Source of the DNA: a virus
Virus record (IMG/VR): IMGVR_UViG_3300032308_001297
Coordinates: 64,001 to 128,000 of that record
Reading direction: 5' to 3' (one strand)
DNA: 64,000 nt
This document shows positions 1 to 5,314 of this stretch, piece by piece (within the stretch, counting starts at the first letter, position 1; every line of letters starts with the position of its first letter). The notes below the pieces were generated by a model. It saw nothing but the letters and a program-made list of their open reading frames with translations. It did not search any database and had not been told where the DNA came from. The translations under genes were made by a program, and so were the position numbers.

Positions 1-99
1 CATATCACATTTGGATACGAATCTCTTAGCGAATCTATCTTCTTTTTTATCTGTTAGATGAGCAACAAATTCCTCACGACTGGTTTGTCGCAACTTCAT
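1..99 (-). CDS. Partial CDS (N-terminal 33 aa, runs off the window edge); next gene of the putative modification cluster, function unassigned
   Basis: Read manually: ATG at 99 gives MKLRQTSREEFVAHLTDKKEDRFAKRFVSKCDM..., open to position 1; overlaps the 3' end of the amidoligase gene. Confidence 0.55.
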   Translation of the reverse strand, partial: MKLRQTSREEFVAHLTDKKEDRFAKRFVSKCDM

Positions 100-961
100 G
101 GAATTCACGCTGCTTCTTGCCTCTTGATTTGTCATACTTTGTCTTTTCCCAAGCAAGATACATTTCGTGATCATATTTAAATTCTGGGAAAGTATATTTG
201 TCGTTCATTAAAATTTCTTGAACGTCAGGTCCACCATTAAGAGCAGCATCAATAAACTTCTCAACAAATTTAAACGAGTCTTCTATTTCCTTGCGTTTAA
301 TAGAAGAACGGAAACAACGGAACTCAATTGTTCCTGTGTGCTTCATACAATATGTATTGATTGCATGCCGGAAAGGACGACCCATAGAAACGCCATCTTT
401 ACCAGCAGCATGCAAACGAATAAAATCTTCAAAATTATTTGCTAGATTAATAATATTAGCGCACATATAATCTGGCATAGGACGACCGCCATCCCATTTC
501 AGATAAGTCTTAGCAGTCTTAGAACGAGACATATTTGAATCTTGTTGAAACTGATAACAACGATCAATAACGACGTGCTGATTTTCCTGGATATATTTCA
601 CAAGACGTTTTAGCGATTCAATGTCGTCTTTTAATCCTGGAACGTATACGTGAAGATGACCATGGTTGACGCATGAAGCAGTAGGACTATCCCCGTTTTT
701 TTCAAAAACATTGTATATATCAAATATACGATCGACCTGCTCCTGCCACGTTTTAGTTGGTTTGGTATTAACCTCTCCACCAACTGGTGGTTGCAACCCT
801 AAAGGATCGCAAGCAAGACCACGATAATCACCATTAAGATTTACAATATCCGTTTCTGCATATTCCCATTTACCAAGATGTTCTGGTATAACTAGATCTC
901 TTGATATATCACCCCATTCAATTTCAAACCCCCATGTAAAATTCTTTGGGTCATACTTCAT
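74..961 (-). CDS. Putative amidoligase (COOH-NH2 ligase, glutamine synthetase/GCS-like fold)
   Basis: Motifs TWGFEIE, GGEVNT, HGHLHV and GTIEFRCF match the ExE...E...HxH...EFR pattern of the putative amidoligase family; adjacent to a GATase. Confidence 0.75.
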   Translation of the reverse strand: MKYDPKNFTWGFEIEWGDISRDLVIPEHLGKWEYAETDIVNLNGDYRGLACDPLGLQPPVGGEVNTKPTKTWQEQVDRIFDIYNVFEKNGDSPTASCVNHGHLHVYVPGLKDDIESLKRLVKYIQENQHVVIDRCYQFQQDSNMSRSKTAKTYLKWDGGRPMPDYMCANIINLANNFEDFIRLHAAGKDGVSMGRPFRHAINTYCMKHTGTIEFRCFRSSIKRKEIEDSFKFVEKFIDAALNGGPDVQEILMNDKYTFPEFKYDHEMYLAWEKTKYDKSRGKKQREFHEVATNQS

Positions 962-1641
962 TGTAAATCCTCAACCATTGGAAATTCATACTTATTATAG
1001 CTTATTAATTTAAATTTTTCAACAATAAAAACTTCATACATAGGAGCAGCTACTTGAATAGTCAGTCCACTTCTTTTAAGAATATCTTTTGTAGAAGCAA
1101 ATATAATACCATTTTCTCCATATGAATAATGCAATGGCCTAGCTTCGTTACGAAAAGCAGTAATTACTTTATCTTTATCTAAAGTGCATACAGACATACT
1201 TGCTGGACGAAACTTATGTAAAGGAATTTCTCCAGCCTCTAAACATCGAAGAATTAATTCGCTATCATTCTTTGTGATAACATCATATCCAAAAGTTCCT
1301 TTCCAATTTTCTGGATTTTCTTGAGAAATAACTCCATTATGAGCAATAGAAAGTTCTTCTGACGCCATTGGTTGATTGTAAGCAAGATCGCTAGTTGAAT
1401 AACGAACATGACCAATACAATAAAGATTACCATCTTCATTGACCCAACTAGGAATGTCTTGATTGTTTATAAATGTGCAAGCATTAACAGGTTCTTTAAT
1501 AGTGTGAACCTTGCCACCCTTAACATAAGAAACTCCAGTGGCATGTTTACCACGGATCATTGATTGAATAAAGAGCCGACGAACAAGTTCGAACTCTTGC
1601 TCGCTCGGTTTCTTTATCGCTATTCCTAGCACACCACACAT
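958..1641 (-). CDS. Class II (Ntn) glutamine amidotransferase
   Basis: N-terminal MCGVLG (Cys nucleophile), RGKHATG, GHVRYST, NQP, AHNGVI, NDSE. Confidence 0.9.
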   Translation of the reverse strand: MCGVLGIAIKKPSEQEFELVRRLFIQSMIRGKHATGVSYVKGGKVHTIKEPVNACTFINNQDIPSWVNEDGNLYCIGHVRYSTSDLAYNQPMASEELSIAHNGVISQENPENWKGTFGYDVITKNDSELILRCLEAGEIPLHKFRPASMSVCTLDKDKVITAFRNEARPLHYSYGENGIIFASTKDILKRSGLTIQVAAPMYEVFIVEKFKLISYNKYEFPMVEDLQ

Positions 1642-3014
1642 TAGAAAAATGACTCCAACGAAGCTATCTCAGTTCCACCGTATGGATCTTTCATATCATG
1701 AGCAGTAAGATAGTCATACCATTCTTTATCTTCCCACATTCCTGGTGAAACTCCATTCCACAACGGACGATGTAAAGGATGATCTTTATTGGTACGACGA
1801 TCTTCTACAAATTGTTTACGTAACATTTCGTAATTATAAGATTGTAATTCTAACATCTTTTCTCGGAAATAGCAAACTACAGATATTCTTTCATTAGTAA
1901 CATCGTCCGGATTGTTAAGAACAATAGGAGTATTACCATGAATGATTTCGTGGTTGTTAACAAGGAGCAAATCGCCGGGACGAACATTAACAGCAATACG
2001 ATATTCAGGAAATACAAGATAGCCTCCAGTGTATTCTCCAGTCCCAAGAACTAGAAGATTTGATAGACCTGCATCAAGATCACCAGCATCTCGATGACAA
2101 GCAGTGCGGAAAGTTTTATTTACTGTAATAGTAGTGAATACTGTTTCAGGAACTAAGAAACGTGGATCAAGTTTATCTGCTGCTGCTTTCTGATTACCCC
2201 AACGCCAAGGTAGTAAATCCTTGAAACCTCTATTTAATGATTGGAGGAATGGATATGCAAGTTCAAATAATTCTGGATGTTTTTCAGTGTATGACGTTGC
2301 ACGCCCGTAAGGAATGCGAGGGTAACGATCGTACCAACCAGCAACACCTGAGAATACTGACTTTGCATAGTTAGTTGTTGATGCCCATTTTTCTGCAACC
2401 ATTCTTGCTTCTTCATAGACATCCTCCTTAGATTTATTAGATAAACCATCAACCCATTTATCAAACCAACCATGATATTCTGGATATACTTTCTGAACTT
2501 CTGAACGTAGCCAAACAGTGCCACGTGTTTCGTCAACTGGTTTATATTTAGGATCGTTATACTTTGCGCGAATACTTTCAATTGAATTATCTTCGAATAA
2601 CGAAGCACCATCATTCATCAAGAACTCAAGAACTTCCATTTGATATGGTGAAACCCAATCTCTGCCACCACGTCCTTCAGTGGAAAGCATTTCACCACGT
2701 GGACCAGCAGCAAGACCACGATTCTGACTTTCTGTTGCAGCGCCTCTCAGACCACGATAAGCACTATCCTGTTCTTCTTTAGTGAAGTAATTTTTACGAA
2801 ACTTGAATGCAATACGTAATTCATCATTACCTTTATCACAATCTTCACAATCCTTCATACCACAATCTGCTTTCTCAAGCGGATCGCAAAGCGGAGGCAT
2901 ATAACAATCAGTATCTTCCTCGATTAATTTATCGTAATGACTTTCATCGACGAAAGTACCTAATAGATGTTCGCAATCATGTTTTGTCTTTGCTACAATG
3001 CGTCTTACCATCAC
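1641..3014 (-). CDS. TET/JBP-family 2OG-Fe(II) nucleic-acid base dioxygenase
   Basis: FTTITVN-x3-RTACHRDAGD (HxD), GGYLVFPEY, RPGDLLL, HEIIHGNT, ERISVVCYFRE: the TET/JBP signature set. Confidence 0.85.
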   Translation of the reverse strand: MMVRRIVAKTKHDCEHLLGTFVDESHYDKLIEEDTDCYMPPLCDPLEKADCGMKDCEDCDKGNDELRIAFKFRKNYFTKEEQDSAYRGLRGAATESQNRGLAAGPRGEMLSTEGRGGRDWVSPYQMEVLEFLMNDGASLFEDNSIESIRAKYNDPKYKPVDETRGTVWLRSEVQKVYPEYHGWFDKWVDGLSNKSKEDVYEEARMVAEKWASTTNYAKSVFSGVAGWYDRYPRIPYGRATSYTEKHPELFELAYPFLQSLNRGFKDLLPWRWGNQKAAADKLDPRFLVPETVFTTITVNKTFRTACHRDAGDLDAGLSNLLVLGTGEYTGGYLVFPEYRIAVNVRPGDLLLVNNHEIIHGNTPIVLNNPDDVTNERISVVCYFREKMLELQSYNYEMLRKQFVEDRRTNKDHPLHRPLWNGVSPGMWEDKEWYDYLTAHDMKDPYGGTEIASLESFF

Positions 3015-3391
3015 TCATCCCCATAAAGAATAGATTTAATATCAGGCGGTCTCCAACCATCTGGTTTTAAAATCTTACCATCAGCACGACGAACTGGTTT
3101 TCCATCAACTAATTTTGCCATGTTTGATTTATGCACTTCGGCGAACACTTTATCGAGGGGAATACCGTAAGATGCAGCAGTGCCACACACAATGTAAATA
3201 ATATCAGCGAGCTCTTTAGCAATATTCTCCACATCGTTTTTGCACTCTCCTTGAATGTATTCTTCATATTCTTCCTTTAGTAATCTAAGTCTAAGTTCAC
3301 GTTCTGCTGGATCAGGAAGTTCTGGCTTTACACCAATATTCTGACCAACTGCTGTTTGAAAATCTTTAACATCTTGAAACATATTACTCAT
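3011..3391 (-). CDS. MazG-like / PRA-PH nucleoside triphosphate pyrophosphohydrolase
   Basis: LLKEEYEE...KELADIIY...EVHKSNMAK...RADGKILKP. Confidence 0.85.
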   Translation of the reverse strand: MSNMFQDVKDFQTAVGQNIGVKPELPDPAERELRLRLLKEEYEEYIQGECKNDVENIAKELADIIYIVCGTAASYGIPLDKVFAEVHKSNMAKLVDGKPVRRADGKILKPDGWRPPDIKSILYGDE

Positions 3392-3947
3392 TCATCCACT
3401 CCGGAGGGTTGCGTTTCTTCCAACTATGAAGATGAGTTTTACCCATCTTATAATAATTACGATAATTTGTTATGGGATCTGATGAAATAATATATTCGTC
3501 AGCCATACAAGAAGGCATAGTTGTCATATCATACTCTTCTAGTTTCTTAGGCGGAGACTGAAGCATATAAGATATCTCACCAAAACATTTATGTTGCTTT
3601 TCATAACGATGAGTGTATTCTTGCATCAATGCAAAGAAATGATCAACTAACCAATTATAATTCTCGATACTTGTGCGAGCCCAGACAGCACTCGGATGAT
3701 TAATGTGCGTAGCTGAATATATAACTTCTTCACGTGCATCTCCTAATAGCCACCATTTTTTCTTGCGAGTTTTTATAGATCCATCTTCTTGTTCAACCTG
3801 GACTTCTAACTGTATTTCTCTACCATCGAGAATACGATGCGCAGTAGAAAGAAGCTGAGCAGATTCTAAGATCATCTTCACAACGTGACGATCTACCATC
3901 CACTCTGCTGCTGTTACAGGATTTTTATCAAGATAAAAGATGTTCAT
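3384..3947 (-). CDS. Pyrimidine-dimer DNA glycosylase / endonuclease V-like protein
   Basis: MNIFYLD...DRHVVKMILESAQLLSTAH...THINHPSAVWAR...YRNYY, typical of the DenV-like family. Confidence 0.7.
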   Translation of the reverse strand: MNIFYLDKNPVTAAEWMVDRHVVKMILESAQLLSTAHRILDGREIQLEVQVEQEDGSIKTRKKKWWLLGDAREEVIYSATHINHPSAVWARTSIENYNWLVDHFFALMQEYTHRYEKQHKCFGEISYMLQSPPKKLEEYDMTTMPSCMADEYIISSDPITNYRNYYKMGKTHLHSWKKRNPPEWMNE

Positions 3948-4090
3948 ATATCGTATTTCTCAAACAATTTATATGCAGTATAAACCATTAACAGAATAAT
4001 AGCAAGCCAAATATAATCAGAGATAAGTTCTAGAGCTTCTTGATAGTGTTTATTAAGCATATCAAAATCAAAGTATTTAACATGCTTCAT
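3944..4090 (-). CDS. Small membrane protein (48 aa), not in the ORF track
   Basis: MKHVKYFDFDMLNKHYQEALELISDYIWLAIILLMVYTAYKLFEKYDI*; overlaps both neighbours at start and stop; one hydrophobic helix. Confidence 0.6.
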   Translation of the reverse strand: MKHVKYFDFDMLNKHYQEALELISDYIWLAIILLMVYTAYKLFEKYDI

Positions 4091-4587
4091 CATAATTTAA
4101 TCCTCATTTCCACTTTCTCTCCTTCGCGCCATTTCTTTAGAGCTTTATCTCTATAATATCTATTTGCTCTATCATAAAAACGAATACCATCTAGATGATC
4201 CATTTCGTGTTGAAACACTCTAGCAGACATACCTGTGAAAGTTTCAGTTCTAGTATCTCCGTTTGGAGTTCTGAATCTAACACGAATGTGTTGAGATCTT
4301 TTTATTTTAACTAACATTCCAGGATAAGACAAGCATCCTTCTTCTAAAGATACTTGAGCTTCACTTGGCTGAATAATTCTAGGATTAAAACAAACAAAAT
4401 TCTCAGGAGCACCTCTCATAGCAAAAACTCTAAAAGGATATCCTACTTGATTTGCTGCTAATCCTAAACCATTTTTTTCATACATTGTCTTTACGAGTTC
4501 TTGAGCAAACTCGATAGGTTCAACTTGTGGTTGATCGAAATTAAAATCGCTGCATTTTTTATGCAGATATCTATCTTGAAGTTCCAT
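4090..4587 (-). CDS. def: Peptide deformylase
   Basis: GLGLAANQVG, EGCLS and QHEMDHLDG motifs; start revised to ATG 4587 (MELQDRY), which has GAGG upstream. Confidence 0.93.
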   Translation of the reverse strand: MELQDRYLHKKCSDFNFDQPQVEPIEFAQELVKTMYEKNGLGLAANQVGYPFRVFAMRGAPENFVCFNPRIIQPSEAQVSLEEGCLSYPGMLVKIKRSQHIRVRFRTPNGDTRTETFTGMSARVFQHEMDHLDGIRFYDRANRYYRDKALKKWREGEKVEMRIKL

Positions 4588-4594
4588 AATTACC

Positions 4595-5314
4595 TCAGAG
4601 TAATGATTTAGCGAACGCTTCTCTGTTTGCCCAGCCATGTCCAGCACGTGGGTTTTGTGGAGTGTAATGAGCAGGACGTTCGTAACCAATAGCAACTTCT
4701 AATGCTTCGTCAATATTCTTAGAAGCAGAAAGTCTTTTACCAGTTCCTCTTTCAGAACCTTTACGTAGTTCCCAATCAGCAAAACGAACCTGCGTATCAA
4801 GATCATGAATTGGTCTGTTACGATCAGCAGCAAATTTCATAAGATCAGTTAGTCGTCCTGGTGAATGTGCGCCAGTTTTTCTATCATAGTTGTCACGCCA
4901 CTGGCCTATACCAAATGCTGTCTTTTGATCGCCCCAAACATTTGTGCGAAGATCAGAATATGATTCCTGCATAAACTGTCCAACCATAGCAGCTGCCTGA
5001 TAATCTTTCCAACCAAGATCCATTAGAACTTTTTTGGCATATAATGGACGATCTCTACCTTTTAACGTATTAGCATCAATCTCTACAGATGGCGGAGGAG
5101 CAACTTTTTCCACTGCTACTTTAGCAACATCTTTTGCTTTCTCAACAACAGGAATTGTTTTAGCAACAACTGTTTCTTTTACAACTGTGACATTGGCAGA
5201 AAGAAGTTTCTTCATTGCTGCAAGAGTTTTTGGTCCAAGATCACCATCAATCGGTCCTGGATCATATCCTCTTTCCTTGAGTTTCTGCTGAATTTCTTTT
5301 ACAATCTTATCCAT
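4595..5314 (-). CDS. Peptidoglycan-binding domain plus phage-tail-lysozyme-type muramidase (candidate endolysin)
   Basis: N-terminal QQKLKERGYDPGPIDGDLGPKT (PG_binding_1-like); C-terminal AAAMVGQFMQES...AFGIGQW...YERP. Confidence 0.8.
   Translation of the reverse strand: MDKIVKEIQQKLKERGYDPGPIDGDLGPKTLAAMKKLLSANVTVVKETVVAKTIPVVEKAKDVAKVAVEKVAPPPSVEIDANTLKGRDRPLYAKKVLMDLGWKDYQAAAMVGQFMQESYSDLRTNVWGDQKTAFGIGQWRDNYDRKTGAHSPGRLTDLMKFAADRNRPIHDLDTQVRFADWELRKGSERGTGKRLSASKNIDEALEVAIGYERPAHYTPQNPRAGHGWANREAFAKSLL

Follow-up and report, generated by a model that had tools for sequence, protein, structure and literature searches.

A conserved TET/JBP, glutamine amidotransferase and ligase gene cluster of a T4-like phage as a candidate pathway for thymine hypermodification

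The window analysed here, a stretch of 64,000 nucleotides, corresponds to bases 64001-128000 of the 162,364-bp viral contig IMGVR_UViG_3300032308_001297, which is 98% complete according to CheckV. At its start lies a cluster of overlapping genes encoding a TET/JBP dioxygenase, a class II glutamine amidotransferase (GATase) and a carboxylate-amine ligase, and this cluster is real, conserved and beyond chance. Past position 1 it includes an amino acid:DNA transferase (AADT) and a 5-hydroxymethyluracil (5hmU) kinase, and we are highly confident that it encodes a thymine-modification pathway running through 5hmU, the kinase and the AADT. Gene swaps among relatives and a predicted complex make it reasonably probable that amination, acylation and acetylation would follow one another in this order. 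More tentatively, the GATase and the AADT could form a two-subunit amidotransferase acting on polymeric DNA, after which the ligase would form an amide, giving 5-(N-acetyl-gamma-glutamyl-aminomethyl)-2'-deoxyuridine (~428 u by arithmetic). We infer all these reactions from genes, folds, motifs and co-occurrence. An earlier note on this DNA had proposed a base-hypermodification locus with no established product; the kinase and the AADT found in the operon bear this out, and we found no reported product.

All open reading frames (ORFs) of the cluster are on the minus strand and are coupled through overlapping stop and start codons, as the note had described: TGATG between the MazG-like gene and TET, TAATG between TET and GATase, ATGA between GATase and ligase, and 26 nt between ligase and GNAT. 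The TET/JBP Fe(II)/2OG dioxygenase (1641..3014; start GTG 3014 or ATG 3011) is followed by the stand-alone class II (Ntn) GATase (958..1641), the ATP-dependent ligase (74..961) and the 5' end of a GNAT acetyltransferase (1..99, probable ATG 99; Acetyltransf_10 2.7e-13). The latter is the truncated ORF previously seen at position 1, and it continues to C1:63569. Beyond it, outside the window, the genes that were to be read there are a GIY-YIG/ParB-like ORF of 431 aa (C1:62232-63527; L001:12232-13527), the AADT (C1:61265-62266; ADDT 2e-23) and the P-loop 5hmU kinase (C1:60726-61265; Ploopntkinase3 5e-13). Positions 20-3802 of the window are covered in one piece by a contig from a different study. 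In the 80 IMG/VR loci retrieved via the ligase, the order GATase-ligase-GNAT-(ParB-like)-AADT-kinase recurs wherever the contig extends, confirming co-occurrence of the ligase-GNAT-AADT-kinase set across phages, and TET stands directly upstream of the GATase-ligase-GNAT set in most of them. The phage is T4-like, with gp46/47-like genes upstream of the cluster and gp45, gp44, gp62 and regA downstream, all recognised from their translations. NCBIfam named no cluster protein above its cut-off.

The relatives of this cluster exchange single genes. About 440 ligase loci were reduced to 135 clusters at 80% identity, and their neighbours were labelled with profiles built here; swaps were counted in the 74 clusters flanked by 4 kb or more on either side, of which 66 have an AADT and 66 a kinase. 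Among the 66 clusters with ligase and AADT, TET occurs in 42 and a thymidylate-synthase (TS)-family gene in 20, the GATase in 47 and a flavin oxidase in 16, and a GNAT in 32 and an LMW-PTP-like phosphatase in 31; no cluster has both members of any of these pairs. Cross-combinations exist, with TS, GATase, ligase and GNAT in L094, L507 and L608, and TS, oxidase, ligase and GNAT in L089 and L424. The TS-family proteins are 30-53% identical to gp51 (thymidylate-synthase family) of phage PaMx11, that of L094 being the most distant and only putatively a hydroxymethylase. Most flavin oxidases of ligase loci share 35-51% identity with gp47 of PaMx11, and the AADTs linked to them retain the glycine-pocket residues of PaMx11 gp46, including W146/K150 (the pocket comprises D24, Y47, Y51, E92, W146 and K150; PMC11472151).

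If TET is indeed replaceable by a TS-family enzyme, the input of the pathway would be 5hmU, and the idea of a carboxamide base would fail. The kinase and the AADT in the same operon likewise argue for a thymidine pathway via 5hmU and not via 5-carboxy-U. Moreover, because the oxidase loci combine a glycine-pocket AADT with a gp47-like oxidase, the ligase most plausibly follows 5-aminomethyl-U in these loci. Phage Simon (L007; PQ683277.1, an unannotated record) is an isolated 61-kb phage. Its AADT, flavin oxidase, ligase, phosphatase, kinase and TS-family gene are arranged in PaMx11 order, the ligase and the phosphatase occupying the slot of gp48, the PaMx11 acetyltransferase for 5-aminomethyl-2'-deoxyuridine (5-NmdU). 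In view of the oxidase loci and of this gene order, the ligase is most simply read as an acylase for 5-aminomethyl-U. A scan with the phage Simon ligase alone returned no loci. It should be noted that 8 of the 74 ligase clusters lack an AADT in their vicinity, among them that of Vibrio phage 2.275.O beside queuosine genes. There (L006:7890-13098), a distant ligase homolog stands beside QueF, QueC-like, Ntn hydrolase and FolE genes and is possibly involved in deazaguanine tailoring.

The TET protein matches Tet_JBP (PF12851) at 79.9 bits (1.6e-22), against a Pfam cut-off of 34.9, and its catalytic residues H307-x-D309, H359 and R376 are conserved in 55 homologs. Because the 98%-complete genome, which does encode ThyX, has neither a ThyA-family hydroxymethylase nor a C5-methyltransferase, TET most likely supplies 5hmU from thymine in DNA. 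Its C-terminus (SLESFF; 1641..1661, minus strand) is a sliding-clamp-type tail resembling that of the gp43 polymerase. This pattern was found in 5 of 210 ORFs of at least 100 aa, namely gp43, TET, GNAT, AADT and one other, and 46 of 62 TET homologs carry a tail of this type. By analogy with the clamp-binding tails of T4, these gp43-like C-termini indicate action on DNA at the fork, TET, AADT and GNAT probably working behind it through the sliding clamp. In five records a Tet_JBP search gave no match, with the control also silent, and the absence of TET was judged there from local neighbourhoods.

The GATase identity (GATase_6 8.5e-11) is confirmed by structure model comparison, which aligned 218 residues to PurF with a Z score of 24.9 and an rmsd of 2.9 Å; the glutaminase domain of GlmS (Z 22.7), EgtC (Z 21.5) and TsnB9 (Z 19.8) were also matched. 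The nucleophile C2 as well as R30, R80, Y81, N102, G103 and D126 are invariant in 73 of 73 homologs, forming a full glutamine site. Searching the PDB by sequence brought no useful match for either the GATase or the ligase.

The earlier note had treated these two enzymes as a functional combination, which their distribution does not support. Loci seeded with the GATase contain an AADT in 40 of 40 cases and a ligase in 10 of 40, while AADT-seeded loci contain the GATase in 34 of 35 and the ligase in 3 of 35; minimal TET-GATase-AADT-kinase cassettes occur without any ligase. Judged from co-occurrence, the partner of the GATase is the AADT, not the ligase. The GATase-linked AADTs form a separate clade in which Y/F replaces W146/K150. 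The AADT of this cluster has Y156 and F160 at these glycine-pocket columns of gp46, to which it is 14% identical overall, the alignment being dependable only near the FGxW/FGRY motif; its D29, E239, T240 and C243 match D24, E243, T244 and C247 of gp46. Given that the GATase fills the slot of the flavin oxidase, it should also yield a primary amine.

A predicted three-chain complex of AADT and ligase with the GATase as partner scored 0.72, compared with 0.00 for the best of three controls. In a two-chain calibration, 58 of 80 solved pairs and 2 of 110 mismatched ones came up to the mark used for such scores; the present job is three-chain. At least 72% of contacts are shared between runs, the partner pLDDT is at least 84, and confident contacts link GATase residues 28-33, 81, 83, 104, 107, 166-169 and 183-186 to AADT residues 41-47, 70-77 and 277-283. 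In the model, the GATase touches the AADT with its active-site face, which bears R30 and Y81, the positions that in GlmS (R26, W74) line and gate the ammonia channel. Most residues of the predicted interface are near-invariant on both proteins. Of the 68 GATase-linked AADTs, 60-68 retain R41, E43, N45, E47, N70, E71, P73, D74, G278 and I279, depending on the residue; the proteins of ViI (gp247) and Cr30 no longer have R41 and G278, and the interface segments are largely missing from flavin-oxidase-linked AADTs. To our knowledge, no complex of this type has been solved from which the model could have drawn the arrangement. The three-chain prediction contains no confident GATase-ligase contact, which is not evidence against such binding. 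The model supports docking of the GATase on the AADT, of which it would be the ammonia-supplying subunit.

As for the ligase, the earlier assignment to the COOH-NH2 amidoligases holds, although the Amidoligase_2 (PF12224) score of 19.3 bits is below the 22-bit cut-off that several homologs pass. Its AlphaFold model (pLDDT 91) has the glutamine synthetase/glutamate-cysteine ligase (GS/GCL) fold, with a YbdK-like structure (1tt4) matched at Z 10.4 and rmsd 4.8 Å over 219 residues. The top 19 fold matches all belong to the GS/GCL/PafA-Dop family, GmaS is among the fold matches, and Foldseek rows, all at E > 0.001, are all GS/GCL. Residues E13, E15, E63, H102, H104, R198, E213 and R215 are kept at 97-99% in 128 distant homologs, and the ExE, E, HxH, R and ExR motifs of COOH-NH2 ligases are present. 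We counted 220 ligase-encoding stretches in one IMG/VR scan, as well as 596 protein clusters. Homologs are fused to 5-hmdU kinase, GNAT, GATase, LMW-PTP or TAGT, and fusion to the kinases, GNAT, phosphatase or TAGT indicates that the family belongs to thymine-modification chemistry. Examples are a ligase-GNAT-(unassigned region)-kinase protein (P0131, L089:8001-10829) and a GNAT-ligase-kinase protein (P0144, L094:8001-10097).

The ligase residues split according to the partner gene: GNAT-linked ligases carry E36, D38, H100, Y153, D157 and Y204, phosphatase-linked ones D, T, N, R, S and R, and the CX5R motif of the ligase-linked phosphatase is intact in 56 of 57 cases. From this split we infer two kinds of donor, an amine-bearing acid for the window-type ligase and a phosphorylated acid for the phosphatase-linked type. 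Because characterised GS-fold ligases activate aliphatic gamma-carboxylates (gamma-glutamyl) and R198 is invariant, glutamate, used via its gamma-carboxyl, is our best guess for the donor of the window ligase.

The second ligase type, with an LMW-PTP-like phosphatase bearing an intact CX5R motif, was observed at L007:7980-9393 and L088:8001-10331 and in L136, L160, L129, L288 and L266. Such loci sometimes include, or are fused to, a TAGT glycosyltransferase, a combination suggesting that a phosphorylated acid is ligated, dephosphorylated and glycosylated. On the same tentative reading as the ~428 u product, sister cassettes in which a phosphorylated acid, phosphatase and glycosyltransferase are swapped in could give a family of further bases. 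Two tandem ligases with an inverted phosphatase gene are found in L320, L164 and L316/L397 and may build a longer side chain. Ligase-less TET-GATase-AADT-kinase cassettes, with or without a small gp48-like GNAT, are present in L525, L463, L561, L579 and L582 and in L541, L568, L462, L569 and L572; these may make 5-aminomethyl-dU or its acetylated form, 5-AcNmdU, by a glycine-free route. The cultured Caulobacter phage Cr30 (L004:8001-14474) has a 47%-identical TET with AADT, kinase and inositol-1-phosphate synthase genes and no GATase or ligase nearby; judged by this gene content, its cassette is for a different thymine modification.

The pathway that we propose would be post-replicative throughout and act on thymine in phage DNA. 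TET/JBP would oxidise T to 5hmU, as characterised phage T-dioxygenases do, and the P-loop kinase would convert it to 5-phosphomethyl-U, as characterised 5-HMUDKs do. The AADT-docked GATase would then hydrolyse glutamine and pass on ammonia to the site of the AADT, which would replace the phosphate to give 5-aminomethyl-U directly, a step suggested by co-occurrence, pocket residues and the predicted complex. With ATP, the ligase would join an amine-bearing acid, most likely glutamate via its gamma-carboxyl, to the amine of 5-aminomethyl-U; the place of this step is drawn from the gene swaps and its donor from the fold, and it is the weakest of the five. Finally, the ligase-linked GNAT would acetylate the amine of the added residue. 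By analogy with bases such as alpha-dapT, the likely role is protection from host nucleases or restriction; limited, sequence-selective T oxidation could instead be regulatory (PMC13229309).

Several observations weigh against this proposal. Fold does not separate a glutaminase from a gamma-glutamyl amide hydrolase of the EgtC type (Z 22.7 vs 21.5), and the NEFPD pattern used as AADT seed falls inside the predicted interface, biasing the AADT-seeded loci to GATase-linked AADTs. There is one GATase-ligase fusion protein (P0198). The swaps partly follow phage lineage, their counts not being independent events, and the existence of two types of ligase pocket points to different acyl donors among the family members, so that glutamate is not assured. 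A clamp tail is present in only 2 of 124 ligases and the window ligase is not basic overall (pI 6.2), with no sign of DNA binding, which leaves its action on DNA a supposition. We found no cultured phage with this cassette.

Other readings of the same genes must be considered. In the alpha-glutamylthymine of phage SP10, glutamate is attached through its alpha-amine, and here too the AADT could attach an amino acid (e.g., glutamate by its alpha-amine) whose carboxylate the GATase and the ligase would amidate; the two genes are neighbours in most T4-like loci and fused in P0198, and gamma-carboxylates are amidated by GS-fold enzymes. We consider this unlikely, as the GATase tracks the AADT rather than the ligase and Y156/F160 replace the glycine-binding W146/K150; furthermore, the oxidase would strip the carboxylate, yet the ligase persists without GATase in flavin-oxidase loci.

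EgtA/EgtC and GmaS chemistry offers a precedent for a gamma-glutamyl carrier: the ligase would turn a small amine into a free gamma-glutamyl amide, which the Ntn enzyme would cleave on the AADT surface; the AADT would install the amine on DNA, and the GNAT would cap it. EgtC and TsnB9 resemble the GATase in fold to about the same degree as the glutaminases do, GmaS is among the fold matches of the ligase, the latter lacks a clamp tail, and the predicted GATase-AADT contact is equally compatible. However, GATase occurs without ligase in 30 of 40 loci, and ligase without GATase in 16 clusters, which have a glycine-type AADT and a flavin oxidase. As each is commonly found without the other, they are not an obligate make-and-break pair, and we judge this carrier route improbable.

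Another reading keeps the proposed route up to 5-aminomethyl-U and lets the GNAT and the ligase compete for it, giving a mixture of 5-AcNmdU and an acylated base. PaMx11 gp48 does acetylate 5-NmdU directly, and many ligase-less cassettes combine GATase and AADT with a GNAT. The GNATs of these cassettes are other ones, however, with one group gp48-like, whereas the window-type clade is always beside the ligase, including 11 members found without ligase bait, and is sometimes fused to it; such a branch therefore seems rather doubtful. The earlier note's own scheme, in which TET would oxidise T or 5mC to the carboxyl for GATase and ligase to turn into a 5-carboxamide or aminoacyl amide, fits the adjacent, coupled genes and the iterative oxidation to 5caU of which phage T-dioxygenases are capable in vitro, but is very improbable. 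TS-family genes replace TET in loci with the same downstream set (L094, L507, L608), 5hmU is what the kinase and the AADT act on, and 5fU and 5caU each make up <3% of what the characterised enzyme of the GATase/AADT-linked subclass yields; moreover, the genome lacks a C5-methyltransferase and characterised GS-fold ligases use aliphatic gamma-carboxylates.

The remaining ORFs of the region are less closely tied to the proposed pathway. The 431-aa ORF has no Pfam ParB match, a weak ParB-like middle (PHROG 1e-4), a weak GIY-YIG N-terminus (0.016) and Atlas leads under 0.9. It was recognised in 14 of 42 TET loci; because it is variable and missing from many relatives, this ORF may encode a mobile endonuclease and not the activator of TET. 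The MazG-like/PRA-PH nucleotide pyrophosphatase (3011..3391, minus strand; PRA-PH 1e-17) was correctly identified in the earlier note, which had also suggested that it could clean up the nucleotide pool. We rejected it as a pathway member: MazG is present in only 9 of 42 TET-bearing loci and in 0 of 24 other ligase and AADT loci, and is a coupled neighbour and passenger. Upstream (3384-3947, 4090-4695 and 4595-5314) are genes for pyrimidine-dimer-glycosylase-like, peptide deformylase and peptidoglycan-binding lysozyme-family proteins, with no tie to the cassette. A 288-aa glycosyltransferase-like ORF (C1:59252-60118; L001:9252-10118; phrog_1574, weak Anp1) precedes gp45; it is present in Cr30 and many relatives and appears to track the replication block, not the cassette. 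The contig also carries pmoC (C1:2301-3062, outside the window; AmoC family, 3.7e-110), for which freshwater pmoC-phages of 159-527 kb offer a comparison (PMC7674155), and the host is probably a methanotroph.

Publications since at least 2021 have left open what GATase and amidoligase do in the thymine-modification clusters of phages, and the cassette is common in aquatic viromes. The question can now be framed as an ordered pathway with a concrete product and predicted masses of 257 u for 5-aminomethyl-dU (PMC8989533) and, by arithmetic, about 386 u after addition of glutamate and about 428 u after acetylation. If the proposal is true, it adds two enzyme activities that work on DNA, namely glutamine-dependent amination and the ligation of an amide with ATP, and a new natural base; it would also provide a one-step route to amine-tagged thymines usable for DNA labelling, and ligase-less cassettes would arrive at 5-AcNmdU, a known base, along another route. 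The virion DNA of phage Simon could reveal the ligase product, and the ligase-less cassettes are the simplest test system.

Compared with known enzymes, the GATase shares the Ntn fold and all glutamine-site residues with PurF, GlmS, AsnB and EgtC, but stands alone, its predicted partner being a DNA base transferase. The ligase shares fold (Z 8.4-10.4) and the metal/ATP/carboxylate motif pattern with YbdK, GshA, glutamine synthetase, GmaS and PafA at 8-16% identity, whereas an amine carried by a base in DNA is proposed as its acceptor. Amide-ligase cassettes of the RIO-1/phiEco32/LUZ24 type combine a GATase and ligases with an ATP-grasp ligase and a gamma-glutamyl cyclotransferase; we rejected this type, since the contiguous ORFs here are all of other families and LUZ24-type GATases are only 25-30% identical. 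Iyer et al. (2013) reportedly predicted such systems computationally, and part of the proposed model may already be contained there. In the literature covered, which excludes most subscription papers, we found no characterised product for the GATase/ligase pair.

Lee et al. (NAR) reported metavirome clusters of TET_JBP, 5-HMUDK and aGPT-Pplase2 with amidoligase and glutamine amidotransferase of unknown function, TET standing in place of a dUMP hydroxymethylase (PMC8989533). The gene families are the same as here, and the available parts of that paper give neither order nor product. The earlier note's view of an uncharacterised combination is thus right as to the product, but the combination itself is already in the literature as an unsolved one. 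The cluster type is known; the present analysis adds the rules by which its gene modules combine, an interface predicted between GATase and AADT, and specific masses to expect. O'Toole et al. (PNAS 2026) showed 5hmU to be the main product when phage TET/JBP enzymes of the subclass linked to GATase, kinase and AADT oxidise T (PMC13229309). The present cluster resembles their clade C1 (ParB-linked) T-dioxygenases in its linkage to GATase, P-loop kinase and AADT and in having no C5-methyltransferase; it differs in that only T to 5hmU was assayed there and that the ParB-like ORF here is weakly assigned, with a GIY-YIG-like N-terminus (PMC13229309).

The closest parallel is the 5-AcNmdU pathway of PaMx11, which, in the available parts of its descriptions, comprises gp46 (AADT), gp47 (flavin oxidase), gp48 (GNAT) and gp49 (kinase) (PMC8989533, PMC11472151); gp46 and gp47 make 5-aminomethyl-dU and gp48 acetylates it (PMC8989533). 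Both pathways would share 5-phosphomethyl-U and 5-aminomethyl-U intermediates, the latter proposed here, and a GNAT at the end. They differ in the origin of 5hmU, which comes from a hydroxymethylase in PaMx11 and would come from TET here, and in the source of the amine, which is glycine with an oxidase there and is proposed to be glutamine through the GATase-AADT pair here. Moreover, the present cassette has an extra ligase step, a GNAT of another clade and an AADT without W146/K150, and hence without the glycine:DNA transferase signature of the PaMx11 gp46/M6 gp51 type.

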